Source: Spirochaetia bacterium (lineage in GTDB: Bacteria; Spirochaetota; Spirochaetia; SZUA-6; Bin103). From it: a stretch of 64,000 nucleotides of DNA. Each line of letters starts with the position of its first letter. Within the stretch, counting starts at the first letter, position 1. Below are positions 1-50,052 of this stretch, one piece after another. Position numbers and translations under genes: made by a program. The stretch is taken from the NCBI GenBank assembly GCA_965203905.1, contig CBDBDQ010000005.1, positions 6,624,001 through 6,688,000 of the forward strand, read 5' to 3'. The notes under the pieces are model-generated. The model searched no databases and was not told where the DNA came from. It was given only the letters and a program-made list of their open reading frames with translations.

Positions 1-485
1 CCGATGACGGCGATGGTGCGCCCGGCGTAGTCGGCGGGCGTATCCTGGCGAACCGCCGAGTAGATGCCGACCGGCAGCGCTATCAGCTGCCCGAGCACGA
101 GTGCTATGAGGCCGAGCTGTATCGTTACCGGCAGGCTGGCGATGATTCTCTGCCGCACGGTAAGACCGCCAAACAGTGAATCGCCGAGGGAGCCCTGCAG
201 CAGCCCGTTGAAGCGACGCTCACCGGTCATCCAGTCAGGGGTCGGCAACACTCCCATCCAGCGTCCATATTGAACGTAGACCGGCACGTCTAGTCCCATC
301 ATACGCTCCACAGCTTCACGGTCTATGCGGTCCCCCGTGCCAGCGCCGCCTTCGTAGAACATGCGACCTTCTATGATGTCTATGACATCGCCTGGGATGA
401 AGCGCACCAACAGAAAGACCAGGATGGTCAGTATGAAGAGGGTGGGGATGACAAGGAGTAACCGCCTGATGACATAGGCTCTCAC
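1..485 (-). CDS. dppB: ABC peptide/nickel permease, DppB-like (5' part, runs off window)
   Basis: GTG start at 485 reads MRAYVIRRLLLVIPTLFIL...RFIPGDVID, matching the other dppB copies. Confidence 0.9.
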   Translation of the reverse strand, partial: MRAYVIRRLLLVIPTLFILTILVFLLVRFIPGDVIDIIEGRMFYEGGAGTGDRIDREAVERMMGLDVPVYVQYGRWMGVLPTPDWMTGERRFNGLLQGSLGDSLFGGLTVRQRIIASLPVTIQLGLIALVLGQLIALPVGIYSAVRQDTPADYAGRTIAVI

Positions 486-531
486 CGCGAACACCTCATG
501 ACGATTTCTCCATCAATGCAGCCGGGAGAAC

Positions 532-569
532 AGGGGAGCTGGAAAGCGCGACGCCTCCCAGCTCCCTCT
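532..569 (-). terminator. Stem-loop between SBP and dppB (mRNA stabiliser or attenuator)
   Basis: GGGAGCTGG...CCAGCTCCC inverted repeat. Hairpins at the equivalent position occur at 8625, 16857, 21750, 36858 and 47841. Confidence 0.6.
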
Positions 570-597
570 TCCTGAGGTCCGCCGGATGCGGCGAATC

Positions 598-2445: not shown

Positions 2446-2762
2446 GGGAAATCTCCTTCTTCGAGAGCACTCGACGACTGCTCCCCTCGTCCGCTCTCGA
2501 AGTCCGGCTTCAGGGCCGGTTACTGGCAGGGAGAGAGGGCACTTGGCATCAGCTACCTCCGCACCTCCTGTCGCCTGCCATGGTACACACCCCGAATGGG
2601 CCGTCAAGCACGTACCACGGCAGACCGCGCGCTACCCAGGATGTCGACGTGGTCGTGGAGACCAACGGCGCGACGCGGCCTGCGCGAAGGAATGAGTAAG
2701 CTCATCGCGTGTCCGTGCGCGGCGGATCCATGGCCCAGTGCTTTGGGCACGGCGATGTTGGC

Positions 2763-2797
2763 TTGACACACTATCATCGTTGGTGAATGATACCAAC
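2763..2797 (+). promoter_or_regulatory. Promoter/operator of the RHH-MazF module, probably leaderless
   Basis: TTGACA at 2763; overlapping inverted repeats TATCAT..ATGATA and GTTGGT..ACCAAC directly before the ATG; no SD. Confidence 0.6.
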
Positions 2798-3040
2798 ATG
2801 GCAACCAGACCCGTCCAGATCTCGATCGACGAAGAGCTCTTGCGCCGCCTGGACGCGGATTCGGACGCCCGGCGGCAGGGTCGGTCGGCTTTCGTGCGCA
2901 CGGCGGTACGGTTCTACCTGGAGGCGAAGCAGCGCCGCGAGGTAGAAGCTCAGCTTCAACGAGCGTACCAGGGCCGCGCGGACGAATTGCTTGGTGAGGT
3001 GGCGGATATGATCACCGATCAGGAATGGCCCGCGAGCTGA
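2798..3040 (+). CDS. Ribbon-helix-helix (CopG-like) antitoxin
   Basis: MATRPVQISIDEELLRRLD...RSAFVRTAV RHH pattern; overlaps the toxin gene. Confidence 0.85.
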   Translation: MATRPVQISIDEELLRRLDADSDARRQGRSAFVRTAVRFYLEAKQRREVEAQLQRAYQGRADELLGEVADMITDQEWPAS

Positions 3041-3351
3041 ACCGCGGGGAGATCTGGCTGCTCGACCTCCCGCGCCCGGACAAGCGGCGTCCGGTTCTGA
3101 TCCTGACGCGGCGCGGGCTGATCGGCCTCCTGCACACCGTTACGGTGGTCGCTCTGACCTCCACCCTTCGCGGCGCCCCCACGGAGGTGGAGTTGGGCAC
3201 TGCCGAGGGGCTCAAAGGACTCTCGTGCGCCAACCTGTGCAATGTTTTCACGGTGGAACAGCACCGGCTGCGAACCTTTGTGGGGAGTGTTGGTCCGGAC
3301 AAGATGCGCCAGGTGTGCCGAGCACTGATCATCGCCACCGGGTGCGACTGA
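3025..3351 (+). CDS. mazF: PemK/MazF family toxin
   Basis: RGEIWLLDL...KRRPVLIL...VTVVALTST motif, 108 aa. Confidence 0.9.
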   Translation: MARELNRGEIWLLDLPRPDKRRPVLILTRRGLIGLLHTVTVVALTSTLRGAPTEVELGTAEGLKGLSCANLCNVFTVEQHRLRTFVGSVGPDKMRQVCRALIIATGCD

Positions 3352-3768
3352 GCGGGGACGGTCGTACTCGGACCTACCTGACCGACCTCGCGGCATCGGC
3401 ATAGAGCGCCGTTCGACAGCGCTCAGTCACATCTTGGGCAGTGAGTTCCTGCCAGCGCCCTATCTGGTCCGATACGCGTCCTGCCTGCTTCGGAGGTGCA
3501 TCGCCGCTCGGCTGATCGCACTCGACGTCGTGCCGCTTGGCCGACCACGCCAGGTAGCGCTCTCCGCCCCCGCGATGACGCGCTGCTGCGCTCGCGACCG
3601 CGCCAGGGGTTTGAGCATGGTCGGGCGCTGATGGTCCGGCAGCGATGGTAGTCACCGTGGTGCGATCGCGGTGTCGCCGACGTCCCCGCGCTGACCTGAT
3701 AGTGCGAACTTACCTTCTACTCCGACACAGCCTTGCCGACAGGCTTGCTGCCGGCGGAGAAGCGGGCG

Positions 3769-3816
3769 GCGCCGCGCAGGCGGGGGTCCAGGAGGTCACG
3801 CAGGGCGTCGCCGAAA
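3769..3816 (-). pseudogene. Orphan 3' tail of dppC
   Basis: The minus strand translates to FGDALRDLLDPRLRGA, the DppC C-terminus. Confidence 0.8.
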
Positions 3817-3914
3817 TCGAGCGCCCCACCTGACCACCCCTTTCGATGCGGATTCGGCAGCGCCCGGCACTCGCGCCGCTGGTCTCCGGGCGGGAATAGT
3901 GGTATAGGGGTGAT

Positions 3915-4169
3915 ATGGACGAGCCGGCAAGCAGGCGCGAACCGCAGGACCGGGCGGATTTCCAGGACCGGCTGCGCGTTCTGGTCGCACGCTACAAGGC
4001 GGAGTGCCTGTGGGACCTCAAGGAAGATCCGGACCTGGAACAGGAGGCGGTGGCTGGTATGGTACTGCGCCGCATCGTGTCCTGCGCTGACCGCGCCGGA
4101 TTCGTCGAAGCGCAGCTACTCCTGAGATGGCTGTCACCGAGTTCCAGCGTTCCATCTGCCGGCTCATAG
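3915..4169 (+). CDS. Small protein, likely antitoxin partner of the downstream nucleotidyltransferase
   Basis: 84 aa with a CLWD motif; 43 nt overlap with the AbiEii-like gene. Confidence 0.6.
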   Translation: MDEPASRREPQDRADFQDRLRVLVARYKAECLWDLKEDPDLEQEAVAGMVLRRIVSCADRAGFVEAQLLLRWLSPSSSVPSAGS

Positions 4170-4939
4170 CCGACCACCGCAAGCGCTCCGGAGTGAGCTA
4201 CGTCGCCGGCGGTGTAGCCCTCAATCTGCTCCTCGAAGCAACGCGCCTGTCGCGCGATATCGACATCTTCCACGATGCGGAAGAAGCGGTGCACTCCTCG
4301 TTTGCAACTGATCGCCGGCTGTTGGAGCGCGCCGGCTACAAGGTGTCTGCGCTGCGTGAGCTACCCGGTTTCGTGGCTGCCGCCGTCGCCAAGTCCGGTG
4401 ACGGCGTACGCATGGAGTGGGTTCGGGACAGTGCGTTCCGCTTCTTTCCGCTCATGGAGCATGAACAACTCGGGCTGACGCTGCACCCCTTCGACCTGGC
4501 CACCAACAAGGTTCTGGCGATGGTCGGACGGCTTGAGGTCCGCGATTGGGTGGACGCAATCAACGCTGGTCGCCGCTTGCAGCCGCTCGGCTACCTGCTG
4601 TGGGCCGCGTGCGGCAAGGACCCGGGGTACAGTCCCGGCTCGTTGCTCGCGCATGCTCGCCGGACGACCCACTATTCGGCCGTCGAAGTGGCGCAGCTCG
4701 AATTCGAGGGCGCGTCGCCGGATGCCCGCGCGCTTGCCTCCGATTGGCACGGCATGCTGGCCGAGGCCGCTGCGATCATCGATCTGCTGCCACCGGAGCA
4801 GGCTGGAAACTGCGTATTGGACGCCGAGAACAGTCTGTTCACGAGTGGCAGTGGTCGGCTGCCCCGCGCGCTCGCACAGCGTCGAATCCGTTTCCACGCG
4901 GGGTCGCTCGGCGGTGCCTACCCGCGGCTCGTGACCTGA
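4127..4939 (+). CDS. AbiEii-like nucleotidyltransferase toxin
   Basis: YVAGGVAL...RLSRDIDIF, NKVLA...R...RDWVD motifs. Confidence 0.8.
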   Translation: MAVTEFQRSICRLIADHRKRSGVSYVAGGVALNLLLEATRLSRDIDIFHDAEEAVHSSFATDRRLLERAGYKVSALRELPGFVAAAVAKSGDGVRMEWVRDSAFRFFPLMEHEQLGLTLHPFDLATNKVLAMVGRLEVRDWVDAINAGRRLQPLGYLLWAACGKDPGYSPGSLLAHARRTTHYSAVEVAQLEFEGASPDARALASDWHGMLAEAAAIIDLLPPEQAGNCVLDAENSLFTSGSGRLPRALAQRRIRFHAGSLGGAYPRLVT

Positions 4940-5055: not shown

Positions 5056-6237
5056 GTGAGCAGCACGCGTCCTTCCCTCGCCGACGTGCGCCGTACGCTG
5101 CGCGTCAAGTGGTATCGGAGTCCCATCGACCCCGGGCTGCTGCGGCAGCTCATGAAGCGCAGCGATCTGCAGGGCTGGTGGCAGGCGCTGGGCGTGATCG
5201 GCTACCTGACCGGCACCGCCCTGCTGACTTGGCACTTCTTCGCCCAGCAGCAATGGGCACTGTTCGCCGTCGCGCTGTTCGCGTACGGCACCTACTCCTG
5301 CTTTCTCGGCGCGGCGTCGCACGAGCTGGATCACGGCACGGTGTTCCGCACCAAGGCGCTGAATCGGTTCTTCCTGCGCCTGTTCTCGCTGATCACCTTC
5401 TTCAATCCCGACGACTACGCGCTCAGCCACACCTACCATCACCGCTACACGCTGCACCCGGAGGGCGACCGCGAGGTGGTGCTGCCGCAGTCGGCGGCGA
5501 TGCGCATCCTGTTCATCGTCCAGTTGTTCTGCGTCAACCTGACCGGCGGGCCGGGCTGCGACGGACTGATTCCACGCGTCCGTGACACGGTGAACGCCGC
5601 GCTCGGCAAACCGCGGGCCAAGGACGCCGCCGGCGACACCGAGCCGCTGGCGCCGGGCGCTCAGGAGTGGATAGCGGCGCTGTACGAGGCCCATCCCGAG
5701 GAACGGATCAAGTCGGTGCGCTGGGCGCGCAAGATCCTGCTGTTCCACGCCGCAGTGATCGCGGTCGCGATCGTGTTTCAGCTCTGGCTGCTGCCGGTGT
5801 TCATTACGCTGTCCCGGTTCCTCATGAACTGGTGGCGTCTGTTCGTGTTCCTGCCGATGCACTGCGGCCTGCGCGACAACGTGGCCGACTTCCGCAAGTG
5901 CACGCGCAGCATCCGGCTCGACCCGGTCTCATCGTTCATGTACTGGCGCATGAACTGGCACCTGGAGCATCACATGTACGCCGGCGTGCCGTGCTACCAC
6001 CTGCGCAAGCTGCGCCAGGCGATCGAGTTCGACCTGCCGGTGGCCAACAACGCGATCGCGGCGTTCCGGGAGATGCGCGCCACCTGGAAGCGGCAGCAGA
6101 CGGAGCCCGGCTACCAGTACGACACGCCGCTGCCGCCGACCGCCAACCCGGGCCACGTCGACGCCCACGCTTCGAAGCAAGACGACGACCTCAGCACCTC
6201 GATCGGCGACCTGGCCCCGGCTGTGCTGAGCCATTGA
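5056..6237 (+). CDS. Fatty acid desaturase family protein
   Basis: Three His boxes (HELDH, HTYHH, HLEHH) and TM segments; TTGACA at 5018 upstream. Confidence 0.88.
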   Translation: MSSTRPSLADVRRTLRVKWYRSPIDPGLLRQLMKRSDLQGWWQALGVIGYLTGTALLTWHFFAQQQWALFAVALFAYGTYSCFLGAASHELDHGTVFRTKALNRFFLRLFSLITFFNPDDYALSHTYHHRYTLHPEGDREVVLPQSAAMRILFIVQLFCVNLTGGPGCDGLIPRVRDTVNAALGKPRAKDAAGDTEPLAPGAQEWIAALYEAHPEERIKSVRWARKILLFHAAVIAVAIVFQLWLLPVFITLSRFLMNWWRLFVFLPMHCGLRDNVADFRKCTRSIRLDPVSSFMYWRMNWHLEHHMYAGVPCYHLRKLRQAIEFDLPVANNAIAAFREMRATWKRQQTEPGYQYDTPLPPTANPGHVDAHASKQDDDLSTSIGDLAPAVLSH

Positions 6238-8681: not shown

Positions 8682-10475
8682 TCAATGCCCCATTTCTTGC
8701 TTCAGATCATGGTCAACCCAGAGACGGGCGAAGATCGGAAATTTCAGCGCTCCTATTCCGGCTTCGCCGTTATATCCTTTGATCCACGGCTGCGTGACAT
8801 GAAATAATGGGGTGTCGGGACCCCATATTACCCAGTGATTCCTGATCAGGTGCATGTCCATCTCTATAAGAATCTGTTTCTGTTCCTCATAGGTGCCAGC
8901 GGCCAAGGCTCTTTCGTACAAGCCGTCGTAAACCGGGTCGTTGCTCGCAACTGCGTTCCACGGACTCTCGGAGGAAAAAACGCCCACTGACAGTATTGGG
9001 TCAGCTACACCTGCAGCTCTCGTACCGGTCATGTCAAAATCTCTGGCTCCTATAGCCGCCACAGCTACCGGGCGGTCAACCACCTCGATCTCCATATCGA
9101 CTCCAATCTCACGCCAGTATGCAGCGACCAACTGGTCATAGCTTAGATCCGACTGCGCGGCGCTGCGCAGTAACGCGAACTTGAATCTGACGCCGTCGTC
9201 GCCACGAGGGTATCCGGCCTCATCAAGCAGCTCCTCTGCTCCCTCAGGATCATAGGTGTAGGCATCCTTGACCTCCTGAGGCCACTCTTCGAACGGGACG
9301 TAGAACCCGAGCACCGATGTCATCCCCATAGGTGTGGTACTTCCATAACCCTGAAAGTAGCTGTCGTTGATCGTCTCCAGGTCCATTGCCATCTGCATGG
9401 CGCGGCGCACCCGGATGTCGTCAAAGGGCGGCTTGCTTATGTGCGGGGTAAAGACGTTTTCGTTACCTTCCGAGAACGGCCAAATAATGAGTTCTGGACT
9501 TGTCTCCTTGAGCTTTTCGATCAGGTCGATAGACCGAACTTGGGAAGTTCCCGCCCAGCCTACGAAGTCAACCTGACCTGCGCGTAGTGCCGCCAGAAAT
9601 GTCGCTTCCTCCGGCATGATCGTCCACCTCAACTCATCAATGTAGGGCAAACGGTTCTCCGGGAACTTCTCGTCGTAGCCCCAGTAATCAGGATTCTTGC
9701 TATAGGCAAGTAAGCTACCCTCGACATAGTCATCCAGCACAAAGGGACCGGTACCTACCAGGTTCCTCCAATCCTCCATGTTGCCGTGTTCATCGATTAC
9801 CTCGGGGGGGTAGATAACCATACTATACCAGTCCGTGACAACGTTCACCGTACGGAGGTACGGTTGCTTCAGCCTGAACACAACGGTGTACTTGTCTGTG
9901 GCCGTTATCGACTCCCATTGGGGACTCCCGAGCTCACCTATTCCCGGGCTCGGTTCCGTGAAGCCGCTTCCCATACCCAACATGCGATGAAAATTATATT
10001 CGACATCCGCGGCGGTGAACTCCCTTCCGTTCATCGGGGGCTTGTCGTGCCACCGAACGCCTTGGCGGATATGGAAGGTATAGGCGAGGCCGTCGGTTGA
10101 AATCTCCCAGCTTTCGGCCAGCGAACCCTGTATCACGTGAATAGGCATCACGTAGCCGCCCTGAAAATGATACTCGTCCCTTGGCTTTGCCCAGTCCAAC
10201 TTGCCCAGCTTCTCTACCACGCCACCGACGGGTATATGCGCTATACCTGCAGTGTAGGTGTCAAACTGCCATGTCCAATCGAGCTTCATCACCCCGGTTA
10301 TGGTCCCGCCGTACTCCGGCGCGGTCACCATCTTGCCGGTGCTTGGGTCCAGCACCATTTCCTTTTCCGAGGCGGCTGCCGGCTGCTCTTCCGCGGCAGC
10401 GGCCCAGAGGCCGGTGGCGGCCAGAACCAGGACCAACGCAACCGCGAAGGTGGTGCCAATCTTTACCAGTGTCAT
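8682..10475 (-). CDS. dppA: ABC solute-binding protein family 5 (SBP2)
   Basis: 597 aa with signal peptide and family-5 motifs. Confidence 0.93.
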   Translation of the reverse strand: MTLVKIGTTFAVALVLVLAATGLWAAAAEEQPAAASEKEMVLDPSTGKMVTAPEYGGTITGVMKLDWTWQFDTYTAGIAHIPVGGVVEKLGKLDWAKPRDEYHFQGGYVMPIHVIQGSLAESWEISTDGLAYTFHIRQGVRWHDKPPMNGREFTAADVEYNFHRMLGMGSGFTEPSPGIGELGSPQWESITATDKYTVVFRLKQPYLRTVNVVTDWYSMVIYPPEVIDEHGNMEDWRNLVGTGPFVLDDYVEGSLLAYSKNPDYWGYDEKFPENRLPYIDELRWTIMPEEATFLAALRAGQVDFVGWAGTSQVRSIDLIEKLKETSPELIIWPFSEGNENVFTPHISKPPFDDIRVRRAMQMAMDLETINDSYFQGYGSTTPMGMTSVLGFYVPFEEWPQEVKDAYTYDPEGAEELLDEAGYPRGDDGVRFKFALLRSAAQSDLSYDQLVAAYWREIGVDMEIEVVDRPVAVAAIGARDFDMTGTRAAGVADPILSVGVFSSESPWNAVASNDPVYDGLYERALAAGTYEEQKQILIEMDMHLIRNHWVIWGPDTPLFHVTQPWIKGYNGEAGIGALKFPIFARLWVDHDLKQEMGH

Positions 10476-11200
10476 ACGTAACTCCGTATGTGGATTATCG
10501 AGAGTATTGCGCAGCGGACGCCCGCTCCCTGGCTACTCTCGCGCCCGCAACGCGGGTGGCCAGAAAGAGTCAATGGCCTGAAGCGCGCGACGTGCGACTC
10601 ACCGGGTTCACGTCGCGCGTGCGAGCGGTTCTTTGAGTATTACTTGCACCTCGTGTGGGCCGCGAACACCCGCAGGGGGGCCGCCGGCGACCCGCGATGC
10701 CCCGAAGTCATGCACCGTGGCGTGCGACGACACGGCAAAGCGTAGAAGGGGGAATGCGCGGCCAAGCGGTCCGGGAGTCACCGGACCGCGGAAATACGCG
10801 CCCTCCCGGGTGCGCCCCGGACGCTGCGTCGGGAGGGCGCGTCCAGTGCGTTTCAACGCACAGATCAACCAGTGCGACAGGACCGGACGCCGCGGTTCAG
10901 GCGGCGGGGATCCAGGACCGTTGCAGCGGCCACCGAACGAACGTGCCTTGAGCCGACGCCGAAGGTAGTCGGCCGCAATCCGGATGCGCAACGCGAAGGC
11001 CGCCGGGCGCTCCGCCGAAGCGGTTAAAGAATTATCATATAAAGAGTTGACTCGTGATGCGTGGGCCCGGGGGGGGGGGGGATGCACCGGCCGCATCGCT
11101 GCCATCCGGTTACTGGGCGGACGGTCCTGATGGCGTATGATCCTCATCCGTTTGCCCCTTGGGGTTTTCACTGTTTCACGCGCGCTTTGAGATGTCAAGC
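10476..11200 (-). promoter_or_regulatory. Conserved structured leader upstream of SBP2 (copy 1 of 3)
   Basis: Homologous to 23629-23763 + 28085-28569 and to 49668-50052; several hairpins; minus-strand TTGACA at the distal end. Confidence 0.6.
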
Positions 11201-21840: not shown

Positions 21841-23628
21841 CTAGTGACCCATAGCTTCCTTCAGCTCACTATCAATCCAGAGGCGGGCGAAGATGGCGGT
21901 ATATTGACCGTTTCCCAACGCCCCTTCATTGTTAAACCCTTTGATCCACGGCTGGATCGCCACATACAGTGGGGCCCCAGGACCCCAAATCGTCCAGAAC
22001 TTCTCTATCCCATACTGATTCAACTCTCCGGCTATCCTGTTTTGCTCCTCGAGGGTGGTAGCGGCTCCGCCGGCTTCAAACTTGGCTGTATAAACCGGAT
22101 CGTTGACATTGGAGGTATTCCAAGGTGCGGCCGGCACATAGCGAAACATTACTGGCAATGGGTACCAAATACTGGCCCCCTCCGCGTTGATCATTTCGAA
22201 ATCCCTCTCATTTCTTCTAGGGCCATATGTAGCTGCTTCCTGTACATCAATCTCTACATTAACGCCAATCTTATTCCAGTATGAGGCGACTAATTCATCA
22301 TAGTTCAAATCGTACCGGACGAAATGCATCAACTCGGTCTTAAATCTAATGCCGTCCGCGCCGCGAGGATACCCGGCCTCATCAAGCAGCGCTTCGGCGC
22401 CTTCCGGGTCGTAGTCAAAGACCTTCTTGACATCTTCGGGCCAATCTTCAAATTGGGTGGCAACCTCTGTAAACATACGGTTTAGCAGCCCCTGAGGTAT
22501 TGCATCTGCATTACCCTTATAGTAGGCATTGTTAATTTCTTCGAGGTTTATTGCCATCTGCATTGCCTTGCGCACCCTGATGTCGTCGAAGGGCTCTATC
22601 TGAACGTTCATGCCAAACATAGTCCCCCCACTCCCGACGGAAAACGACGATATCACGACTTCAGGGTTGGTCCGCTGGAGGCTCTCTACCTGGTCGAGAC
22701 TCCTCATTGCGGCTTGGCCGTTCCGACCTAGGTAATCAACCCGACCCGTGCGCAGTGCCGCCAGCTGTGTTGCCGGTTCCGGCATAGTCAGGGCCCTTAA
22801 CCGGTCAACATAGGGCAAGCGGTTCTCCGGGTATTTTTCGTCGTAGCCCCAGTAGTCAGGATTCTTGTCCCAGGTGATAGAGCTGCCCTCGGTCCAGTCA
22901 GTCAGCATAAAGGGCCCGGTGCCGACCAGGTTCCTCCAATCCGTAACGTCCCCATGTTCCTTGATTACCTCGGGGGGGTATATCCGAGCCATGTTGCCGT
23001 CGAGCATAGCAACCAGCGCAAAGAGGTGTGGCTCCTTCAGCTTGAAAACTACCGTCCATTTGTCGGTGGCCGTTACCGATTCCACTTGCACATCGCGCCA
23101 GCTAGTAGCAAATTCGCTACGTTCGGTGAAACCGCTGCCAAGTCCCAAGATACGGTGAAAGTTGTACTCGATATCTTGGGCAGTCAGTTCCCGACCGTTC
23201 ATCGGCGGCTTATCATGCCAGCGAACGCCCTGGCGGACTTTGACGATATACGTCAGTGAGTCGGGCTGCGACCAGCTTTCCGCCAACTGCCCTTTCGTGT
23301 TAGCTGGTACGTTGAGAAACTGGAAGTTCCATTTGACCCTGGGCGTTGCCCAGTCGCCCCAGGCCAGCTTCTCTAAAACGCCATCGATGCCTCCCACCGA
23401 ACCAGAGACCACCAAGTCAGTACCCGGCGGCTCTTCTTTTTGGGCGAAGGTCAGTGTCCCGCCATACTCCGGCGCGGTCACCACCTTGCCGGTGGAGGGG
23501 TCGGTCACATACTTCTTGTCAGCCGCGGCTGCCGGCTCCTCTTCTGTGCCACCCGCCCAAAGGCCGGTTGCGGTCAGGGCGAGGACCAACGCAATCGCGA
23601 AGGTCATTCTGATTTTTACAATGTTCAT
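21841..23628 (-). CDS. dppA: ABC solute-binding protein family 5 (SBP4)
   Basis: 595 aa with signal peptide and family-5 motifs. Confidence 0.93.
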   Translation of the reverse strand: MNIVKIRMTFAIALVLALTATGLWAGGTEEEPAAAADKKYVTDPSTGKVVTAPEYGGTLTFAQKEEPPGTDLVVSGSVGGIDGVLEKLAWGDWATPRVKWNFQFLNVPANTKGQLAESWSQPDSLTYIVKVRQGVRWHDKPPMNGRELTAQDIEYNFHRILGLGSGFTERSEFATSWRDVQVESVTATDKWTVVFKLKEPHLFALVAMLDGNMARIYPPEVIKEHGDVTDWRNLVGTGPFMLTDWTEGSSITWDKNPDYWGYDEKYPENRLPYVDRLRALTMPEPATQLAALRTGRVDYLGRNGQAAMRSLDQVESLQRTNPEVVISSFSVGSGGTMFGMNVQIEPFDDIRVRKAMQMAINLEEINNAYYKGNADAIPQGLLNRMFTEVATQFEDWPEDVKKVFDYDPEGAEALLDEAGYPRGADGIRFKTELMHFVRYDLNYDELVASYWNKIGVNVEIDVQEAATYGPRRNERDFEMINAEGASIWYPLPVMFRYVPAAPWNTSNVNDPVYTAKFEAGGAATTLEEQNRIAGELNQYGIEKFWTIWGPGAPLYVAIQPWIKGFNNEGALGNGQYTAIFARLWIDSELKEAMGH

Positions 23629-23944
23629 ACGTTTCTCCGTATGTGGATTTTTCGAGAGTATTGCGAAGCGGATTGCCGCTTCCTGGCTACTCTCGCGCCC
23701 GCAACGCAGGCGACCAGCCAGATAGAGTCAACTTCCTGAAGCGCGCGGCGTGTGACTCACCGTTATTGCGTTGCGCGCCCAAGGGCGGGGTGAGGGCGTA
23801 CCGGTTGCAGTGACGATGACGTAGGCGGAGGAGCGACAGGGGCGTAAAGTGTGAAGCCCGCAGCAGGTAAATGCTGCGGGCTTCACTTTTAGGCGGCCTC
23901 GGCGAGCGGAAGACAACCGCCCGCCGAGGCCCGAGAGGCAGCGA

Positions 23945-24769
23945 GTGTCCGAGGGTGCAACCGAGGCACACGCGCTCCCGTTCGCGACGACGAACTACCA
24001 GGCGGATCAGGACGGAACCTTGCGCGCCGTGCTGCCGTCGCGGTGTGTCTACGCCACGGGGGAGCAGACGTGTGCCATCTTCGTCGATCATTACCGCGAG
24101 CGCAAGACCGGGCCCCGCTATCCGCTAGCGGTGGTGGGGTGCGGGGTGCATGGGGGCCGGCGCTACACCCTGTATCCGCCCGGACACTACCCCTACGGAC
24201 GGGTGGCGGTGGTGCCCTACAGCGCAGGCGGAGACGTGCTGTTGGACGCAACCGGCAAACGACCGCAGTGGCAGGTGACGCTGTTCGGGGCCGCGCAGGA
24301 TGCGAAGCAGGGGAAGCTGTGGCCAGCCGAGCAGCACTGGTGGCAAGCGTTGAGTACGCCCTGCCGGCGCATCCAGGGACGGCGCCTGGAGCTGGCCGGT
24401 CGGTTGACCGGGGTCAGCCCGGAGTTGGACCAGCGGCAGCGGGAGCAGATCGCGACGCGCTTGGGAGTGGCGACCATGACCGTGCTCTGGGGAGCGCGCT
24501 GCTGGGGGCGCAGCTGGCGCAGCCGCGGCGTAGCGATCATGGCGGTGTTGCTGGCGCTGGCGGTCAGCGCGACGCTGGGGGAGCGCATGGGTGCGGCTGG
24601 TGCGGTCAGCGACCTGTGGGGGCCACCGCGCCCGCGGCTGGTGGCGCGCTGGGAGCAGGCCGGCCAGAGCTGGGTGGTGGCCGCGAGCGGTCGTTCAGCA
24701 GCGCGGGAACAGGGGGTTGTCGACCACCTTCGGGGACGGGCGCCCCCGGCCACGAAAGCGCTTATTTGA
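23945..24769 (+). CDS. Transposon accessory protein with Cys/His cluster (DUF6431-like position)
   Basis: First ORF inside the TIRs; C-x8-C..H..C-x2-H..TLYP..PYGR pattern. Confidence 0.55.
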   Translation: MSEGATEAHALPFATTNYQADQDGTLRAVLPSRCVYATGEQTCAIFVDHYRERKTGPRYPLAVVGCGVHGGRRYTLYPPGHYPYGRVAVVPYSAGGDVLLDATGKRPQWQVTLFGAAQDAKQGKLWPAEQHWWQALSTPCRRIQGRRLELAGRLTGVSPELDQRQREQIATRLGVATMTVLWGARCWGRSWRSRGVAIMAVLLALAVSATLGERMGAAGAVSDLWGPPRPRLVARWEQAGQSWVVAASGRSAAREQGVVDHLRGRAPPATKALI

Positions 24770-24798
24770 AGCCTCCCGTACGGCGCTACGGTAGGCGC

Positions 24799-26205
24799 AT
24801 GAATGATTCGTCACGTCCCCCGTTACCGATCTCGGCTACCGCGCTGCTGCGCTACCTGGTGATCGCCGAGATGGAGGCCCTGGTGTTGCGCGGGTGGCCT
24901 GCGGGCGCCGCGGTACGCAAGGTTGCCCGCGCACCGCGGATCGACCTGGACGGTCGTCCGGTGCGGATCAGCGTGCGTACCCTGCAACGCTGGCGCGCGG
25001 CCTGGGCGAGCGGTCGGCTCGCCGCCCTGGAGCCGCAGCCGCGCACCCGCACCGAGACCTCACTGGCGCTGAGTCCGCAACTGGTCACCTTTCTGCGCAC
25101 CGAGAAGCAACGTGATGTGCGCGCCTCGGTGCCGGAACTGGTGCGGCGGGCGCGCGAGCGCGGCATCATCCCGGTCGACGCCAAGATCGATCGCACCACG
25201 GTGTGGCGCGCCTGTCGGCGAATGGGCCTGCCGACGCGTCAGCGACCACACAAACACGAAGCGGACACGCGTCGCTGGCGCTATGCCGAGCGCATGCAGT
25301 GCGTGCTTGCCGACGGCAAGCACTTCCGCGCCGGCGCAGCGCGGCTGCGGCGGGTGGCGCTGTTCTTCCTCGACGATGCCACCCGCTACGGCCTGGAGGT
25401 GGTGGTGGGCACCGCGGAGTCCAGCGAGCTGTTCCTGCGCGGCCTCTACGAGGTGGTCATGCACCACGGCACTGCGGATCTGTACTACCTGGACAAAGGC
25501 CCGGGCTTCATCTCCAAGGACACCCTGGCCGTGGTCCAGGGCGGCCTGGGCACCTTGCTGATTCACGGCGCCACCAGGTATCCCGAGGGCCACGGCGCCA
25601 TCGAGCGCTTCCATCGCACCGCTTACGATCAGGTGCTGCGTTCCTTCGACGGTGCCGCCGACGTGGACCCCGCTTGCCAGGCACTCACGCTGCGCCTGCG
25701 CCACTTCCTGAACCGCTACAACGACACCCCGCACGAGACGCTCGGCAAGGACACCCCGCGCCAGCGCTGGGAGCAGGGACGGGAGTTGCGCTTTCCCACC
25801 GACGAGGCCGATCTGTATCGCCGCTTCGTGGTGCGCGCCATGCACAAGGTCTCCAACGATCACGTCATCAAGGCCGCCGGTCGGTTGTGGGAAGCGCCGC
25901 GCCGCAGCGCCCGCTGTTGGGTCGAGGTGGCGCGCCACGTGCTCGACGGGCGGCTGTGGGTTCAGCACCAAGGGCGCATGATCGAGCTGGCCGAGCTGGA
26001 TCCCCACGCCAACGCGACCTCACCGCGCGGCTCCGGCAGCGCGCCACAACCGACCGCCGACGAGGACGGCGAGGAACTCCCCGCCACCGCGGCCGGCATC
26101 GCCTACGCCAACGACACCCGCCCGCTGGTCGACCCCGACGGCGGCTACCGCGACCCGCAGGACGACCAACAGGACGACCAACACGTCCAGGAGCAGCAGC
26201 CATGA
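24799..26205 (+). CDS. DDE transposase (MuA/TnsB-like)
   Basis: HTH (SVRTLQRW); DDE residues in LADGKH, YLDKGPGF and AIERFHR; YNDTPH motif. Confidence 0.9.
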   Translation: MNDSSRPPLPISATALLRYLVIAEMEALVLRGWPAGAAVRKVARAPRIDLDGRPVRISVRTLQRWRAAWASGRLAALEPQPRTRTETSLALSPQLVTFLRTEKQRDVRASVPELVRRARERGIIPVDAKIDRTTVWRACRRMGLPTRQRPHKHEADTRRWRYAERMQCVLADGKHFRAGAARLRRVALFFLDDATRYGLEVVVGTAESSELFLRGLYEVVMHHGTADLYYLDKGPGFISKDTLAVVQGGLGTLLIHGATRYPEGHGAIERFHRTAYDQVLRSFDGAADVDPACQALTLRLRHFLNRYNDTPHETLGKDTPRQRWEQGRELRFPTDEADLYRRFVVRAMHKVSNDHVIKAAGRLWEAPRRSARCWVEVARHVLDGRLWVQHQGRMIELAELDPHANATSPRGSGSAPQPTADEDGEELPATAAGIAYANDTRPLVDPDGGYRDPQDDQQDDQHVQEQQP

Positions 26206-27005
26206 GCCACGACCTCAGCCCACTGGGCTTCCGCAAGACCCCCTTTACTCGCGAGTTGACCGTGCGCGAGTGCTTCCCGCTCGAACCTCAGGCCCAGGTC
26301 GCCGCCGCACTCACCGCGGCGGTGCAGGAGCGCATGAGCGCCGCCCTCATCGCTCCCGCCGGCACCGGCAAGACCGTCGCCTTGCGCATGCTCGTCGCCA
26401 CCCTGCCGGAGGTGCGCTTCCAGGTCCACTACGTCAAGGTGACCGGCCTCTCCAAGCGTGACCTGTGCAAGGAAATCGCGGTCGCCTGCGGCCTCTCTCC
26501 CACCGGGATCTATCCCGCTCTGGTGCGCAAGCTGCAGGACGCGTTCGAACATACCGTCAGCGACGGCATGCGCCCCGTCATCCTGCTCGACGAAGCCCAT
26601 GATCTGCGCCCCGAAGCGTTGGCCATGTTGCGCGTCCTCACCAACTTCACAATGGACAGTCGCCTCGTCGTGTCCCTCGTGCTCGCCGGCCAGCCACTCC
26701 TGAAACTGCTGCTCCGGCGCCCTGAACAAGCCGCCATCGCGCAGCGCCTGGCGCACTACGCCGAACTGCGCCTGCTGTCCCGCGATGAGACCCGCGCCTA
26801 CCTCGAACATCGCTGCACCCTCGCCGGCGCTCGCACCAATCCCTTCGACGACGACGCTCAGGAAACCATCTTCGAAATGAGCCGCGGCAACCTGCGTGCC
26901 ATCGACCGCTTGGCCCTGGCGGCGCTGCACCACGCCGCCAAGTCTTCTCACACCACCGTCAGTGCCGGCGACGTGATCGCCGCGCGCAAGTACCTGTGGC
27001 CATGA
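26202..27005 (+). CDS. ExeA/TnsC-like AAA+ ATPase
   Basis: GFRKTPF, Walker A APAGTGKT, Walker B ILLDEAH, LAGQP, SRGNLRAI; ATGA overlap with the transposase. Confidence 0.9.
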   Translation: MSHDLSPLGFRKTPFTRELTVRECFPLEPQAQVAAALTAAVQERMSAALIAPAGTGKTVALRMLVATLPEVRFQVHYVKVTGLSKRDLCKEIAVACGLSPTGIYPALVRKLQDAFEHTVSDGMRPVILLDEAHDLRPEALAMLRVLTNFTMDSRLVVSLVLAGQPLLKLLLRRPEQAAIAQRLAHYAELRLLSRDETRAYLEHRCTLAGARTNPFDDDAQETIFEMSRGNLRAIDRLALAALHHAAKSSHTTVSAGDVIAARKYLWP

Positions 27006-27940
27006 CCACACCGCTGCCCACCGTTCCGGTGCATGCCATCGATCCCCAGCCCGACGCTCCCCAGTGGCTGGTGCGCGACCTCTGGACCACCGCGGCTGTC
27101 GGCGTGATCGGGGGCAGCCCCAAGGTTGGCAAGTCCTGGCTCGGCCTTGACCTCGCCGTCTCGGTCGCGTCCAGCACCCCGGCCCTCGGGCGGTTCCCGG
27201 TCGAGGCCACCGGCCCCGCCCTGGTCTATCTCGCCGAGGATGCTCTGCCACGCGTCCGCGACCGTGTCGCCCACTTGTGCCGCCACCGCGGTTTGGATCT
27301 GGCACGCCTCGATCTGCACGTCGTCACTGCTGACCGCTTGCGCCTCGATACCGAGCGCGACCAGCTCGCTCTCGACCAGACCGTGCAACGGATCCGCCCG
27401 GCACTACTGCTGTTGGACCCTCTGGTCCGACTTCATTCCCTCGATGAGAACAGCGCTTCAGACATCTCTTCTCTGCTCGGCTTTCTGCGCGCACTCAACC
27501 GCCGCTATCAACTCGCTGTGGTCCTCGTCCACCACCTGGCCAAGCGCTCGCGCCGCAATCTCGGCCAGTCCCTGCGCGGCTCCTCCGATCTGCATGCCTG
27601 GACCGACTCCGCCTGCTATCTGGTGCGGCGTCCCGACGACCGTCTGCAACTCACCGTCGAGCATCGCTCCGCTCCCGCTCCAGACCCCCTGCTGTTGCGC
27701 CTCTCAGGCGGCGCCGACCAGCCCCTCTCGCTGCTCGTCGACAACGCTGCCGCCGCCCCGCCTCCCCCGCTCGCCGAGGCGGTGCGCGCCACGCTCCGCA
27801 GCGCCGGCCAGCCGCTCTCCAGGACCGCTCTGCGGCAACGCTTGCGCGTCAACAACGCCCGTCTCGGTCTCGCCCTCCAAACTCTCCAACAGCACGGCCT
27901 CGCCGTCCGCGGCCCCAACGGCTGGCACCTGCCGGCCTGA
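27002..27940 (+). CDS. AAA_25/RepA-like RecA-fold ATPase with C-terminal wHTH
   Basis: GSPKVGKS, YLAED, LLLDPL, LVHH and LRGSS motifs; ATGA overlap with the preceding gene. Confidence 0.85.
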   Translation: MTTPLPTVPVHAIDPQPDAPQWLVRDLWTTAAVGVIGGSPKVGKSWLGLDLAVSVASSTPALGRFPVEATGPALVYLAEDALPRVRDRVAHLCRHRGLDLARLDLHVVTADRLRLDTERDQLALDQTVQRIRPALLLLDPLVRLHSLDENSASDISSLLGFLRALNRRYQLAVVLVHHLAKRSRRNLGQSLRGSSDLHAWTDSACYLVRRPDDRLQLTVEHRSAPAPDPLLLRLSGGADQPLSLLVDNAAAAPPPPLAEAVRATLRSAGQPLSRTALRQRLRVNNARLGLALQTLQQHGLAVRGPNGWHLPA

Positions 27941-28639
27941 CCGGCACCGTCGCCTGCCTACTCGCTCTCGTTCCGCCATTCCCGCGTTCCGCACCAGGGA
28001 CGCGCTCGGAACGGAACGACCACCGTACACACTCCGTGCCAACTATCGTGCAACTCGCCTCGGCTCAGGGCGCGCAACGCAACAACCGGGTTCACCCGGG
28101 CTCACGCCGCGCGCGCGAGCGGCTCTTTGAGTACTACTTGCACCTCGTCGTGGGGGCAGGGAGTAACCCGGCCGCGGAGAACCCACGGCACCAAGACGCG
28201 CCCCGGACGCTGCGCCGGGAGGACGCGCATAGTGCGTCGGAGCGCGCATTTCAAGCAGCGCGACAGGATAGCACGCCGCGATTCAGGAGCCGGGGATCCA
28301 GGACCGTTGCAGCGGCCAGTGAACGAACCTGCATTGGACCGGCGCCGGAGGTAGCCGGCCGCAACCCGGATGCTGAAGTCGAAGGCCGCGGTGCGATCAG
28401 CCGGAGCGGTCAGTTTCTCGGTTCGAATAGCTGCCGGGGGGGACGATTGGATGCACCGGTTGCGTCATCGCCATCCGGTTACTCTGCAGACGGCCGTGAT
28501 GGTGCATTATCCGCATCCGTTCGATCCTGAAGTTTCGTAGCATTTCACGCTCGCTTGGAAGTGTCAAGCTCACCCCCCGGGCCGGGACGGACCGGAGTTG
28601 GCATGGGAGAAACAGGGCTGCAAGCCTATACTGGGGGTT

Positions 28640-28825
28640 AGTCTTCGAGGGAGCGCGAAGTAGGCCGGCGATGCACTGGTGTAGCGCCCTGCGGCGAACC
28701 CGTTGTCAAGCTTGGTCCCGAGGCCCGTGGCGTTGTCATTGGTGAGGCTCAGCCCGCGACCGGTTGCGGTGGTGATCCATCCCGATAAGGAGAATGCGCA
28801 GTTGCTTCACGCCTTGGCCGCTCCA
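28640..28825 (+). ncRNA. Candidate IS110 bridge RNA (ends approximate)
   Basis: Contains TGTCAAGC (28704-28711, equal to left target + core), then TAAGGAG (28786-28792, equal to left donor + core) inside a GTGAGGC/GCTTCAC stem. Confidence 0.7.
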
Positions 28826-28844
28826 CTCATTCCCAGGAGGAGTC

Positions 28845-30239
28845 ATGGCACGACGCAAACGCAGAAGCAAACGCAGCGGCAAGGGCAATCGCTCGGCGCA
28901 GCCGCAGGTGGTGCACCCCGAGGCGGCAGGCCTGGATGTGGGCGCCACCATGATCTACGCGGCGGTACGCGCTGAGCGCGCCGAGCAGCCGATCCAATCG
29001 TTCCCGACCTTTACCCGCGATCTGCATGCCTTGGCCGATTGGCTGAGTACCTGCCAGGTAACCACGGTGGCCATGGAGTCGACCGGCGTGTACTGGATCC
29101 CGGTGCACCAGATCCTGGAAGCACGCGGCTTCGAGGTGGTGCTGGTCAACGCTCGCCACGTGCGCTCGGTGCCCGGTCGCAAGAGCGACGTCGAGGACTG
29201 CGAATGGCTGCGTTGCCTGCACTCGGTAGGGTTTCTGCGCGGCTCGTTCCGACCGGCTGACGAGGTATGTGCGGTGCGCTCCTTGTTGCGCCATCGCGAC
29301 AGCGTGATCAAGACCGCCTCCCGCAGCGTACTGCACATGCAGAAGGCGTTCGATCAGATGAACGTCCATCTGCACCACGCGATCTCCGATCTGACCGGGC
29401 TCAGCGGCCTGGCCATCACCGACGCCATCCTGGACGGAGAGCGCGACCCGACGCGCTTGGCGAAGCTGGCGCACCCGCGGATCAAGGCCAGCCGTGCCAC
29501 CCTGATCAAGGCTCTGGAGGGTGATTGGCGCAGCGAACATCTGTTCACCTTGCGCCACGCACGCCAGACCTATGCGCACTACCAGCAGCTCATCAGTGAG
29601 TGTGACCAGGAGATCATGGCCCGCATCCGCGCGTTCGAGCAGACCCAGGAGCCGCCCGCCGCGACCGCTACCGACCAGCAACCGCCGGAATCCCCTGAAC
29701 CGGGCCCGGAACCGCCTGCGTCGCCTCCGCAAGCGTGCAACATGAAAGCCCACCTGACGCGGTTGTTCGGCACCGACCTGACCCTCATTCCCGGTATCGG
29801 CGACACTACCGCGCTGGTGCTGTTCAGCGAACTCGGCCCCGATCTGTCACGCTTTCCGAGCGCCGCGCAGTTCGCATCCTGGTTGAACCTCTGTCCGCAG
29901 AACAAGATCACCGGCGGCAAGGTGATCAGCTCTCAGACGGGGCCCGGCGCCAACCGTGCGGCACAGGCGCTGCGCATGGCAACCCAGACCCTGTACCGCA
30001 GCCACTCCGCGCTCGGTGACTTCTTCCGCCGCAAGCGGGCCCGCGTCGGCTCCCCGCAGGCGATTACCGACACCGCCCACAAGCTGGCGCGCATCATCTA
30101 CCACCTGGTGACCCGCCACGTCCTCTACGATGACAACGTTCTGCTCCAGCAACAGCGCCAGGACCGTAAACGCCATGAACGGCGACTTCGAAATCAGGCC
30201 CGCGCTCTCGGCTTCAAACTCGTTCCGGAGGCTGCCTGA
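28845..30239 (+). CDS. IS110 DEDD recombinase/transposase
   Basis: GLDVG, AMESTGVYW, RKSDVED, IPGIG and RFPSAAQFASW motifs; AGGAGG RBS. Confidence 0.95.
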   Translation: MARRKRRSKRSGKGNRSAQPQVVHPEAAGLDVGATMIYAAVRAERAEQPIQSFPTFTRDLHALADWLSTCQVTTVAMESTGVYWIPVHQILEARGFEVVLVNARHVRSVPGRKSDVEDCEWLRCLHSVGFLRGSFRPADEVCAVRSLLRHRDSVIKTASRSVLHMQKAFDQMNVHLHHAISDLTGLSGLAITDAILDGERDPTRLAKLAHPRIKASRATLIKALEGDWRSEHLFTLRHARQTYAHYQQLISECDQEIMARIRAFEQTQEPPAATATDQQPPESPEPGPEPPASPPQACNMKAHLTRLFGTDLTLIPGIGDTTALVLFSELGPDLSRFPSAAQFASWLNLCPQNKITGGKVISSQTGPGANRAAQALRMATQTLYRSHSALGDFFRRKRARVGSPQAITDTAHKLARIIYHLVTRHVLYDDNVLLQQQRQDRKRHERRLRNQARALGFKLVPEAA

Positions 30240-47904: not shown

Positions 47905-49667
47905 TCAGAAACCCATTTCTCTCTTTAGATCCTCGTCAATCCAGACGCGGGTAAAGACGGCGTTATAGCGACCGTCTCCCAACCGGTGCTCGCCGTTATA
48001 GCCGATGACCCACGGCTGGATTACGGCAAACTGTGGGGCCACGGGACCAAATATCGTCCAGAACTGCTCTACGCCATACAACTGCAACTCTTTGACCAGG
48101 CTGTTGAGCTCCTCCACGCTGGAAGCGCCCTTGGCCTCCTCGAACTTGGCGTTATACCACGGATCGTCAACATTGGAGGAGTTGTGTCCGGTGGTCGTCA
48201 AGTAGCGCGCGGACCACCCCAAGGGCTGTCCCTTCCCGGCCGCTTCCGCATTCGTCATGACGAAATCTCGCGCACTTCGTTTGGCCGCGTGGGACGGCGG
48301 CGAATGGACATCTATCTCGACCTCGACGCCAATCTCTTTCCAGTATGACGCGAGTAATTGTATGTAGTTCACATCGTAGCGTTCGAGATGGATCATCGTG
48401 GTCTTGAAGCCATCGGGATAGCCCGCTTCAGCCAACAGCTCTTTGGCTCCTTCGGGGTCGTACGTAAAGACCTTCCTGACCTCTTCCGGCCAATCTTCAA
48501 ACTGGATGACCGCCTTTGAAGTCCGGCTCAGTTGCCCCTGAGGTATTATATCGGCGTAGCCCTTGTAGTAGGCGTCGTTGATCTCCTCCAGGTTCAAGGC
48601 CATCTGCATCGCCTTGCGCACGCGGATGTCGTCAAACGGTTTCACCTGGACATTCATGCCGACGCCGTTGTCCGACCGACGGATATAGGGCCATATTACC
48701 AGCTCGGGGTTGGTCCGCTGAAGGCCCTCTATCTGCTCAAGCGTCCTCAGTTGACGCTCATAATCGACGCGACCCGTGCGCAGTGCCGCCATACGGGTCG
48801 CCGGTTCGATCATGATCAGGGCCCGCAACTCGTCAATGTAGGGCAACCGGTTCTGCGGGTACTTCTCGTCATGGCCCCAGTAATCGGGGTTCTTCACCCA
48901 CGTGACTGAGCTGCCTTCGACCCGGTCGGTCAGCAGCATCGGTCCGGTGCCGACCAGGTTCTGCCAATCGCCCGCGTCTCCGTGTTCCTCGATGACCTCC
49001 GGCGGGTACATCCAGCCCATGAAACTGTTCAAGACAGCCGGCAGAATTGTGAGGGTCAGTTTTTCCAGCTTGAATACCACCGTCGATTCATCGGTTGCCG
49101 TTACCGAAGCTATGTTCGCGCCCGCGAGCAGTTCCCATGGCATGATCGTGCGCTCGGTGAACCCACTGCCGAGTCCCAACAGACGGTGATAGTTGTACTC
49201 GATATCCTGAGCCGTCAGCACCCGTCCGTTCATCGGTGGCTTGTCATGCCAGTGAACGCCCTGGCGCACATTGACGACCACCGTCGTTGGGTCGGGCTGC
49301 GACCAGCTTTCCGCCAGTGCCCCGCTCGTGTGGTCTGGCGGGAACAGAAACACAAAGTCGAATTTGTCCCTTGGCGCCGCCCAGTCTGCCATACCCAGCT
49401 TTTCGAGCACGGGATCAATCAGGGCTTCCGCCCAGCCGCCTGGAACGACGATGTCGGCACTTGCCGACGTGCCGGTTTTGACGAAGGTCAATGTCCCACC
49501 ATACCGCGGTGCCGTCACCATCTCGCCGGTACTCGGGTCGAGCACCATTTCCTTCTCTGTGGCGGCTGCCGGCTCCTCTTCGCCGGCTGGACTTGCCCAG
49601 AGACCGGTGGTAGTCAGGACCAGGACCAACGCAACCGGAAGGTCAGTCGGATTATTGCAATATTCAT
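47905..49667 (-). CDS. dppA: ABC solute-binding protein family 5 (SBP6)
   Basis: Family-5 motifs; ATG at 49667 (MNIAIIRLTF, cf. SBP4) is one base out of frame near 49637. Confidence 0.9.
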
Positions 49668-50052
49668 GCGTATCTCCGTATGTCGGGTTTTGAGAGTATC
49701 GCGTAGCGGATCCCTGGCTACTCTCTGCCAGGCCGAGTCAGATTCCTGAAGCGCGCGGCGTGTGACTCACCGGGTTCACGCCGCGCGCGGGTGCGGTTCT
49801 TTGAGTATCACTCGCATCTCGTGTGCGCCGGGAACACCGCCACGGTGTTTGCCGGCGACCCACGAGGTCCCGGAGTCATGCAGCGCAGCCGGTAGAGACG
49901 CGGCAAAGTGTTGACGGGAGGGGGGGACGATTGGATGCACCGGTTGCGTCATCGCCATCCGGTTACTCTGCAGATGGTCGTGATGGTGCATTATCCGCAT
50001 CCGTTCGATCCTGAAGTTTCGTAGCATTTCACGCTCGCTTGGTGGTGTCAAG
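49668..50052 (-). promoter_or_regulatory. Conserved structured leader of SBP6 (uninterrupted copy)
   Basis: Four or more hairpins; contains the empty sites of both elements inserted in the SBP4 leader. Confidence 0.6.

Follow-up and report, generated by a model that had tools for sequence, protein, structure and literature searches.

The AAA+ partners of transposon-encoded DDE transposases capture target DNA, activate the transposase and are kin of helicase loaders; IstB, the partner found in IS21, has the helicase loader DnaC as a paralogue, and IS21 has been suggested to move by copy-out/paste-in (available sections of PMC11208146). A Tn7-like element that has lost TnsA is predicted to transpose replicatively, usually together with a resolvase (PMC8649781, in the portion available). 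IEE, a PrimPol-helicase, enhances the excision of IS3-type elements in trans (10.1101/2023.06.07.543989, available part). The present study concerns a 4321 bp element located at positions 23764-28084 of a 64 000-nucleotide stretch of a Spirochaetia bacterium genome (contig CBDBDQ010000005.1; hereafter the window, to which coordinates refer unless stated otherwise). The element has inverted ends and a 5 bp target duplication, is present in multiple copies, and carries four conserved genes, g1 to g4, all on the + strand and all under purifying selection. We consider it rather probable that it is an intact and autonomous DDE transposon of the TnsB/TnsC (MuA/MuB) type, belonging to a widespread and apparently uncharacterised family, and that g4 encodes a helicase for replication-coupled transposition.

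The ends of the element were defined by repeat finding and by comparison of its genomic copies. The left terminal inverted repeat, TATTGCGTTGCGCGCCC (23764-23780, + strand), and the right one, which reads TGTTGCGTTGCGCGCCC in reverse complement (28068-28084, - strand), are alike at 16 of 17 bases, and the terminal arms reach 33 nt at 79% complementarity according to the repeat finder. Exact matches to the 15-mer core of the tips occur at the two ends only; when up to two mismatches were tolerated, five matches were obtained against 0.54 expected, a number that none of 100 shuffles attained. The left tip is conserved in relatives from other phyla. The tips are flanked by ACCGT on the left (23759-23763) and by ACCGG on the right (28085-28089), i.e. 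by a 5 bp target duplication with one mismatch. Both the 17 bp repeats and this imperfect duplication had been called in a first-pass annotation made from the sequence alone, and both stand. The G+C content is 0.66-0.72 in the element versus 0.50-0.62 in its left flank.

The flanks themselves belong to a dispersed repeat of about 200 bp found at more than 20 places in the genome, the segments on either side of the element being 23600-23763 and 28085-28150. The window contains two uninterrupted copies of this repeat (approximately 10459-10659 and 49639-49822), in which the sequence at the insertion point is GACTC-ACCGG-GTTCAC. They had been described at first pass as two empty alleles: the unfilled target is indeed visible in them, but they are paralogous copies of the dispersed repeat and not alleles. 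About 56 bp to the left of the insertion, the flanking repeat contains a stretch that is 82% complementary to the element's own tip. Contig joints skipping about 4326 bases were considered as evidence of excision and rejected, as they derive from other copies of the flanking repeat.

The genome (7.99 Mb in five contigs) holds four copies of the element, at 100, 100, 95 and 88% identity. The three copies other than that of the window are bordered by perfect 5 bp duplications (ACCGT, ACCGC and CCAGG), and three of the four duplications share ACCG. The 88% copy has a TAG within its transposase gene. Among related loci, 28 end pairs gave seven perfect 5 bp duplications and two with one mismatch; the duplications found in relatives (CGTGC, GCCTC, AGGGC, ACTGG and GCGGG) reveal no common site. 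In the sister genome with the most copies (G001; loci L039-L042 and L049), the five bases flanking the tips differ in four of five copies (one mismatch for L039, two to four for the others), with tip calls that may be some bases off; such unmatched flanks would fit recombination between copies or intramolecular events.

The gene order proposed at first pass, a Cys/His protein followed by a DDE transposase, a TnsC-like AAA+ protein and an AAA_25 protein, was confirmed by open reading frames (ORFs) and profile matches, as was the coupling of the last three genes by ATGA overlaps (26202-26205 and 27002-27005); g1 and g2 are separated by 29 nt. The second gene, g2 (24799-26205, + strand), encodes an rve-type DDE transposase, TnsB/MuA-like, with an N-terminal helix-turn-helix (HTH). 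The g2 queries, and the residue numbers given here, start at 24829, which is 10 residues short: 10 has to be added to count from the ATG at 24799. Taken alone, the protein gave the HTH and weak rve_3 matches in Pfam, and its best NCBIfam model was IS481 (E 4.6e-27), at 95.3 bits and hence below the cut-off of 224. Family profiles of g2, g3 and g4 were built from 29-31 members. With the g2 profile (31 sequences), the best solved relative was TnsB of a type V-K CRISPR-associated transposon (CAST; 7svw, E 1.2e-16), followed by retroviral integrases; the alignment to 7svw spans the catalytic domain and the one following it. D162, D222 and E259 are invariant in the 31 sequences, 20 of which match rve and eight Mu-transposase C-terminal models. 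The third gene, g3 (26202-27005, + strand), which shares an ATGA overlap with g2, encodes an AAA+ ATPase (AAA_22, E 4.7e-21) akin to TnsC and MuB, with invariant G54, G56 and K57 in Walker A and D130 in Walker B. The best full-length relatives of its profile were VchTnsC (E 1.4e-8, over positions 39-264 of 268), MuB (6e-5) and ShTnsC (6e-5), and it matched the PHROG 'DNA transposition protein' at E 5.8e-33. The relation of g2 to TnsB and that of g3 to TnsC and MuB both support the Mu/Tn7-like core assigned by the first-pass annotation.

The element resembles the group formed by Tn7-like elements, Tn5053/Tn402, Tn552 and Mu in many respects: an rve-type DDE transposase nearest to TnsB, a TnsC/MuB-like AAA+ gene directly downstream, a 5 bp duplication, ends that start with TGT/TAT, tip and subterminal repeats, and left and right ends that are unlike. 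It differs from this group in having no TnsA, no TniQ, TnsD or TnsE, no Cas proteins and no cargo, and in being only 4.3 kb long. Among the four proteins that fill 23945-27940, no match was found to TnsA (Pfam or NCBIfam), to TniQ at E ≤0.1 (Pfam) or to the serine or tyrosine recombinase domain of a resolvase (Pfam and NCBIfam). The TnsA-less relatives of the Tn5053/Tn552 type carry a resolvase (PMC8649781, available text), whereas the element carries none. What it adds to the group is a RepA-type helicase, joined in a sister clade by a primase, and an upstream Zn-type protein of unmatched fold. The likeness to IS21 lies in the small size and in the presence of a DDE transposase and a dedicated AAA+ regulator in one operon, but IS21 has two genes and no helicase, the IS21 model NF033546 does not match g2, and IstB_IS21 (PF01695) is absent from the 12 Pfam matches of g3. 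As for IS481, which provides the best NCBIfam model for g2, its elements are about 1 kb long with a single gene; three-gene relatives of the element (see below) come near the cut-off, with a DDE protein at 207.7 bits versus 224, but the g2 protein of the window stays at 95 bits and belongs to a set of four coupled genes.

The last gene, g4 (27002-27940, + strand; ATGA overlap with g3), encodes a RecA-fold ATPase of the AAA_25 family (E 4e-33; 115.1 bits for PF13481, whose cut-off is 27) with a winged-helix-like C-terminal tail. The sole significant PDB relative of its profile was the hexameric helicase RepA of RSF1010 (1g8y, E 9.6e-11), to which g4 aligns colinearly across the Walker A, Walker B and HH-K regions; in PHROG it matched DnaB-like helicases and the helicase portions of primase-helicases from phages. 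K41, K44 and S45 of Walker A, D139 of Walker B and some sixty other positions are invariant across the 29 sequences compared, which go down to 47% identity. The resemblance of the last 60 residues to a winged helix is weak (GntR, E 0.079; profile E 0.2-0.9). The parallel with RSF1010 RepA and the phage primase-helicases extends to the neighbourhood, with a primase gene adjoining g4 in relatives; g4 departs from RepA by its location inside a DDE transposon, by its extra tail and by having no RepC-like initiator alongside. A complex prediction for g3 and g4, with an alignment supplied for each, gave a score of 0.00 (mark, 0.32), which has no bearing either way on their binding.

That the fourth gene is a core component had been suggested at first pass, and synteny across genomes now supports it. 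The survey comprised at least 116 g4 loci, 36 from species-representative genomes and at least 80 from metagenomes (in the metagenome set, 483 of 598 pattern matches encoded a g4 relative, among the matches listed); loci were scored with custom-built hidden Markov models, and 105 of 116 gave a strong g4 match. The g3 gene lies directly upstream of g4 in 82 of the 83 loci with at least 900 bp upstream, and g2 lies upstream in 63 of the 64 loci with at least 2400 bp; the sole exception, the same for both, is a truncated copy (L043). The dN/dS ratios against five relatives were 0.16-0.31 for g4, 0.14-0.32 for g3, 0.20-0.39 for g2 and 0.37-0.43 for g1, and the divergence of g4 follows that of g2 and g3 in most lineages. 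Because of this synteny and of these purifying ratios, g4 is a fixed part of one large clade and not a sporadic neighbour of the transposase. The next-nearest AAA_25 genes (L070-L073, 27-39% identity) have neither g2 nor g3 alongside.

Relatives with three genes and no g4, whose g2 and g3 are about 30% identical to those of the window, are multi-copy in sister genomes (L036, L037 and L038, respectively from G012, G009 and G004) and, in sister genera, reach about 10 places in a genome. They are made up of an upstream ORF of about 200 aa with a Cys cluster, a DDE protein with rve and Mu-transposase-C, and an AAA_22 protein. Another seven loci (L061, L065, L098, L104, L118, L129 and L143) have a g4 about 50% identical to that of the window, a g3 about 25% identical and a g2 undetected by tblastn; other small Zn-ribbon ORFs lie upstream in these lineages. 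The helicase module, with or without a primase, may have been exchanged between distinct transposase lineages.

The g4-bearing records are labelled Spirochaetia, Nitrospiraceae, Gemmatimonadales, Longimicrobiales, Dehalococcoidia, Rhodothermales, Salinibacter, Thermoanaerobaculia, Actinomycetes, Bacteroidales, Desulfobacteraceae and Neomarinimicrobiota. All the labelled records are metagenome-assembled genomes, in which short contigs may be mis-binned; the cases on long contigs are the Spirochaetia chromosomes and the Gemmatimonadales contigs. Within the host phylum the distribution is patchy: close copies were found in three of 40 relatives (G001, G018 and, as fragments, G005), and none of 400 other genomes sampled across the phylum contained g4 at E ≤1e-40. 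Public sequencing runs were examined as assembled contigs only. Near-identical sequence was present in contigs of runs X1-X20, labelled coral reef, biofilm, sponge, coral and marine metagenomes, which suggests a marine and possibly invertebrate-associated host. Contigs from one RNA library match g2-g4 at 90-95% likeness; DNA carry-over is possible in this library.

The clearest indication as to the role of g4 comes from a sister clade. Two of its members (L058 and L060) have a fifth gene in overlap with the end of g4; it encodes a DnaG-type CHC2 zinc ribbon (Zn_ribbon_DnaG) and a Toprim domain and matches the dnaG model TIGR01391 at E 6.4e-35. Where at least 1000 bp of downstream sequence was available, such a primase gene follows g4 in 17 of 43 loci; a further case (L106) was missed by the positional rule, and seven shorter loci have partial copies that are cut off. 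Wherever both tips could be located, i.e. in four loci, the primase is inside the inverted ends, the elements being 5409 bp (L058), 5293 bp (L116), 5524 bp (L126) and 6204 bp (L097) long, and the tips of these elements are homologous to those of the window (TGTTACGTTGCGCGACC in L058). A quick, unrooted g4 tree was computed with 88 rows (92 before removals, which concerned a g4 score below 430, a stop, a length under 270 aa and the near-copies L040, L041, L049 and L079). The 24 rows with a primase are all placed in the same main clade, which has 54 rows; in the clade of 34 that includes the window, none of the 14 scorable rows has a primase. The split between the two clades has an SH-aLRT support of 97. 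A helicase paired with a primase makes a module for replication, and it is mainly on this ground that we read g4 as a helicase acting in DNA synthesis and not as a target selector: of the two functions first proposed for the fourth gene, assistance to replicative transposition gains support from the primase beside it and target selection gains none. In the L058 locus, 84 nt past the right tip (5898-5981) are 88% complementary to 1695-1778, a segment close to where its transposase gene begins; the explanation is either an inverted copy that is nested or an artefact of assembly.

By analogy, the nearest functional parallel is IEE, a protein of the primase/helicase type tied to a replication-requiring DDE transposition; it works in trans, is encoded outside the insertion sequence and has a PrimPol domain, whereas the present family counts the helicase among its core genes, with or without a DnaG-type primase (for IEE, available part of 10.1101/2023.06.07.543989).

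The first gene, g1 (23945-24769, + strand), encodes a 274 aa Cys/His protein of no known family or fold. It had no Pfam, NCBIfam or PHROG match, and a profile search collected 841 cluster representatives at E ≤0.001. C43, R51, R53, G56, C66, H69, Y77 and P78 are invariant in 89 sequences. An AlphaFold model derived from the 89-row alignment (pLDDT 88.9, pTM 0.83) consists of an N-terminal beta region followed by a helix bundle (a model from 35 close sequences, a shallow set, had a pLDDT of 50.7 and was set aside). With Foldseek the retained model had no match at E ≤0.001 in the PDB or BFVD, and the ESM Atlas gave no usable match for g1. A match to the g1 profile is present upstream in 38 of the 45 loci with at least 3300 bp upstream; four of the other seven were inspected (L061, L104, L118 and L129), and in each the g1 position is occupied by another small ORF with a Cys cluster. 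When the g1 profile was compared by hhalign with the ORFs lying upstream in L036 and L061, the probabilities were 1.3% and 0.15%, respectively, values that do not support homology of the upstream Zn-type ORFs; a shared C..C..H/Y..R-K/R..G motif was recognised by eye only. Judging from the model, g1 is not recognisably TniQ. The first-pass annotation had presented g4 as standing in the place of TniQ: TniQ is indeed not detectable, but a part in DNA recognition or as a selector would more naturally fall to the conserved upstream Zn-type protein g1 than to g4. We infer that g1 is likelier than g4 to act as an end- or target-recognition factor, or as a regulatory one, because it is of the Zn type, because one half of it is helical and DNA-binding-like and because a protein of this sort lies upstream of the transposase in every lineage.

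Between the tips and the genes, several non-coding features were noted. A subterminal motif, GGTTGCAG...GATGG, is common to both ends, about 30-55 nt inward of the tips: on the left it reads GGTTGCAG...GATG (23803-23826, + strand), is made of conserved columns and is mirrored at the right end, where its counterpart is AGTTGCAC...GATAG (28034-28055, - strand). The left motif is possibly a second transposase-binding site. At the right end alone, a palindrome, CGTTCCG...CGGAACGGAACG, spans 27968-28019. Its stability is unremarkable (z -0.86); because its arms are nevertheless sequence-invariant in both clades, it points to a candidate protein-binding or priming site. Inspection by eye for a promoter across the abutted ends revealed nothing convincing.

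The left end has two hairpins. The first (23851-23886, + strand), a perfect 15 bp stem followed by TTTT, has a z of -6.95 on the + strand and -7.77 on the - strand; the second (23895-23931, + strand; repeat finder and folding) is immediately 5' of the g1 ribosome-binding site. Both have a z of about -7 on either strand and display compensatory changes in relatives from other phyla. With its TTTT, hairpin 1 may block read-through from outside; together, the two might serve as a terminator of read-through, as an mRNA leader or as a signal at the DNA level. An Rfam scan of the element produced just a sub-threshold match of chance level to ar14 over the left hairpins (21 bits versus 58.8, E 0.73). 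The 88% genomic copy is cut near its left end by an IS110-family element (G000:C5, about 7727934-7729613; L004 5745-7130, - strand) at the equivalent of 23855-23857, i.e. inside hairpin 1. An IS110-family transposase gene (DEDD_Tnp_IS110 and Transposase_20) is also present in the window at 28794-30239 (+ strand), about 700 bp to the right of the element. The conserved left-end hairpin may be a target of IS110 elements.

How, then, would the element move? We propose replication-coupled transposition because there is no TnsA and no resolvase but a helicase is present. The g2 transposase would bind the tips and the subterminal repeats and, with g3 on the target DNA, would join the 3' ends to the target with a 5 bp stagger; with no TnsA to cut the 5' strands, the branched intermediate would then need replication. 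At this stage g4 would come in as a hexameric helicase of the RepA/DnaB type, encoded by the element itself and perhaps positioned on it by the winged-helix tail; in the sister clade, a DnaG-type primase would be supplied as well. The helicase, together with the primase where there is one, would open and prime the branched intermediate, and DNA synthesis across the element would become less dependent on the host restart primosome. Replication could start from a target-joined intermediate, as for Mu or Tn5053, or from a one-ended copy-out figure-eight, as for IS3 or IS21. Given simple insertions with perfect duplications and no resolvase, copy-out/paste-in would fit at least as well as a Mu-like route: a purely Mu/Tn3-like cointegrate pathway would need host recombination, because simple insertions are seen and yet there is no resolvase.

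Several points weigh against a helicase-driven, replication-coupled mechanism. The same simple insertions are one of them, as they are many and have perfect duplications in an element with no resolvase. The clade to which the window belongs has no primase, and the priming argument thus rests on relatives. RecA-fold AAA_25 proteins are not all helicases, and the unwinding activity and hexamer of g4, as well as a cointegrate or a circular form, are predictions made from sequence. The Mu/Tn7 label of g2 is not exclusive, given that its best NCBIfam match is IS481. Finally, no end-to-end junction of the element was found in the contigs of the four public runs that were aligned to it, contigs being unable to exclude one.

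A bolder version, possible but in our opinion unlikely, is that of a self-priming replicative transposon. The helicase (with the primase of the sister clade), g3 acting also as a loader, and the invariant right palindrome would then together make up a portable mini-origin; the strand-transfer or excised form would be replicated independently of the host restart primosome, perhaps with a transient episome.

Improbable, though it has several facts on its side, is the proposal that g4 is a target selector or regulator which replaces TniQ/TnsD/TnsE, its tail reading a DNA feature and its ATPase signalling to g3 with no unwinding. TniQ is undetectable in the element, and g4 comes right after the TnsC-like gene, translationally coupled to it, where Tn7-like elements keep their selector; against this, the sole solved relative of g4 is a replicative helicase, and the conserved presence of a DnaG-type primase next to it in the sister clade fits a helicase and not a selector. 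A reader of DNA could be seen in the weakly winged-helix-like 60 C-terminal residues, but g1, in all lineages, is already a DNA-binding candidate. Likewise, the ACCG of three of the four duplications in this genome would suit a selected site, but the duplications of relatives show no common one.

We give little credence to the view that the helicase, with the primase of relatives, the right palindrome and perhaps g1, forms a minimal IncQ-like replicon, the excised and circularised element being maintained and amplified as an episome from one insertion to the next, in the manner of a transposon-plasmid hybrid. A RepA-type helicase plus a primase is the IncQ replication set, and the sequence-invariant palindrome is present at the right end only, in both clades; no initiator homologue was found, however, and g1 has no known fold. 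Many metagenome contigs do have about the length of the element (4.3-5.4 kb), but they have short flanks past the tips (in L050 the element occupies 76-4568 of 4636), as expected for collapsed repeats and not for circles, and the contigs of the four public runs contain no end-to-end junction. Nor was g4 matched in 72,556 plasmid records; for g2, the plasmid collection gave two weak Streptomyces matches only (28-30% identity).

Lastly, that g4 is conserved cargo (for DNA repair, anti-defence or addiction, for instance) with no part in the transposition reaction would agree with the multi-copy three-gene relatives, whose core can move without it, but is very improbable for a gene joined to g3 in 82 of 83 loci, overlapping it by ATGA, constrained as strongly as g3, diverging in step with g2 and g3 in most lineages and carried by an element of 4.3 kb that has nothing else as cargo and does not resemble a cargo carrier.

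No element of this layout was found in the literature consulted, as far as the available parts go, ISfinder and TnCentral being outside its coverage; the supplementary tables of PMC8649781 and PMC10293859, with thousands of loci, might hold some. The family is thus apparently undescribed: it consists of TnsB/TnsC-type transposons with a built-in replication module and a Zn-type partner. This partner is in itself of interest, since the g1 family is large (841 cluster representatives) and has a confident predicted structure but no known fold. TnsB/TnsC-type transposons are known to vary in their choice of target; here the variation consists of replication proteins added to the core. Casposons and Polintons carry polymerases, and Helitrons a Rep-helicase, but we know of no characterised DDE transposon of bacteria that provides some of the machinery for its own replication. 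If it is true that the helicase, with or without the primase, drives copying, the present element would be one, and the hand-over from transpososome to replisome, a long-standing question, would become testable. A replicative transposon independent of its host would also be useful for genetics in non-model bacteria. In the self-priming version, if true, the family would connect DDE transposons with IncQ-like replicons as a living link, and its spread over many phyla would be explained; more generally, an element bringing its own helicase might account for the near-identical gene sets observed in records labelled with ten or more phyla.

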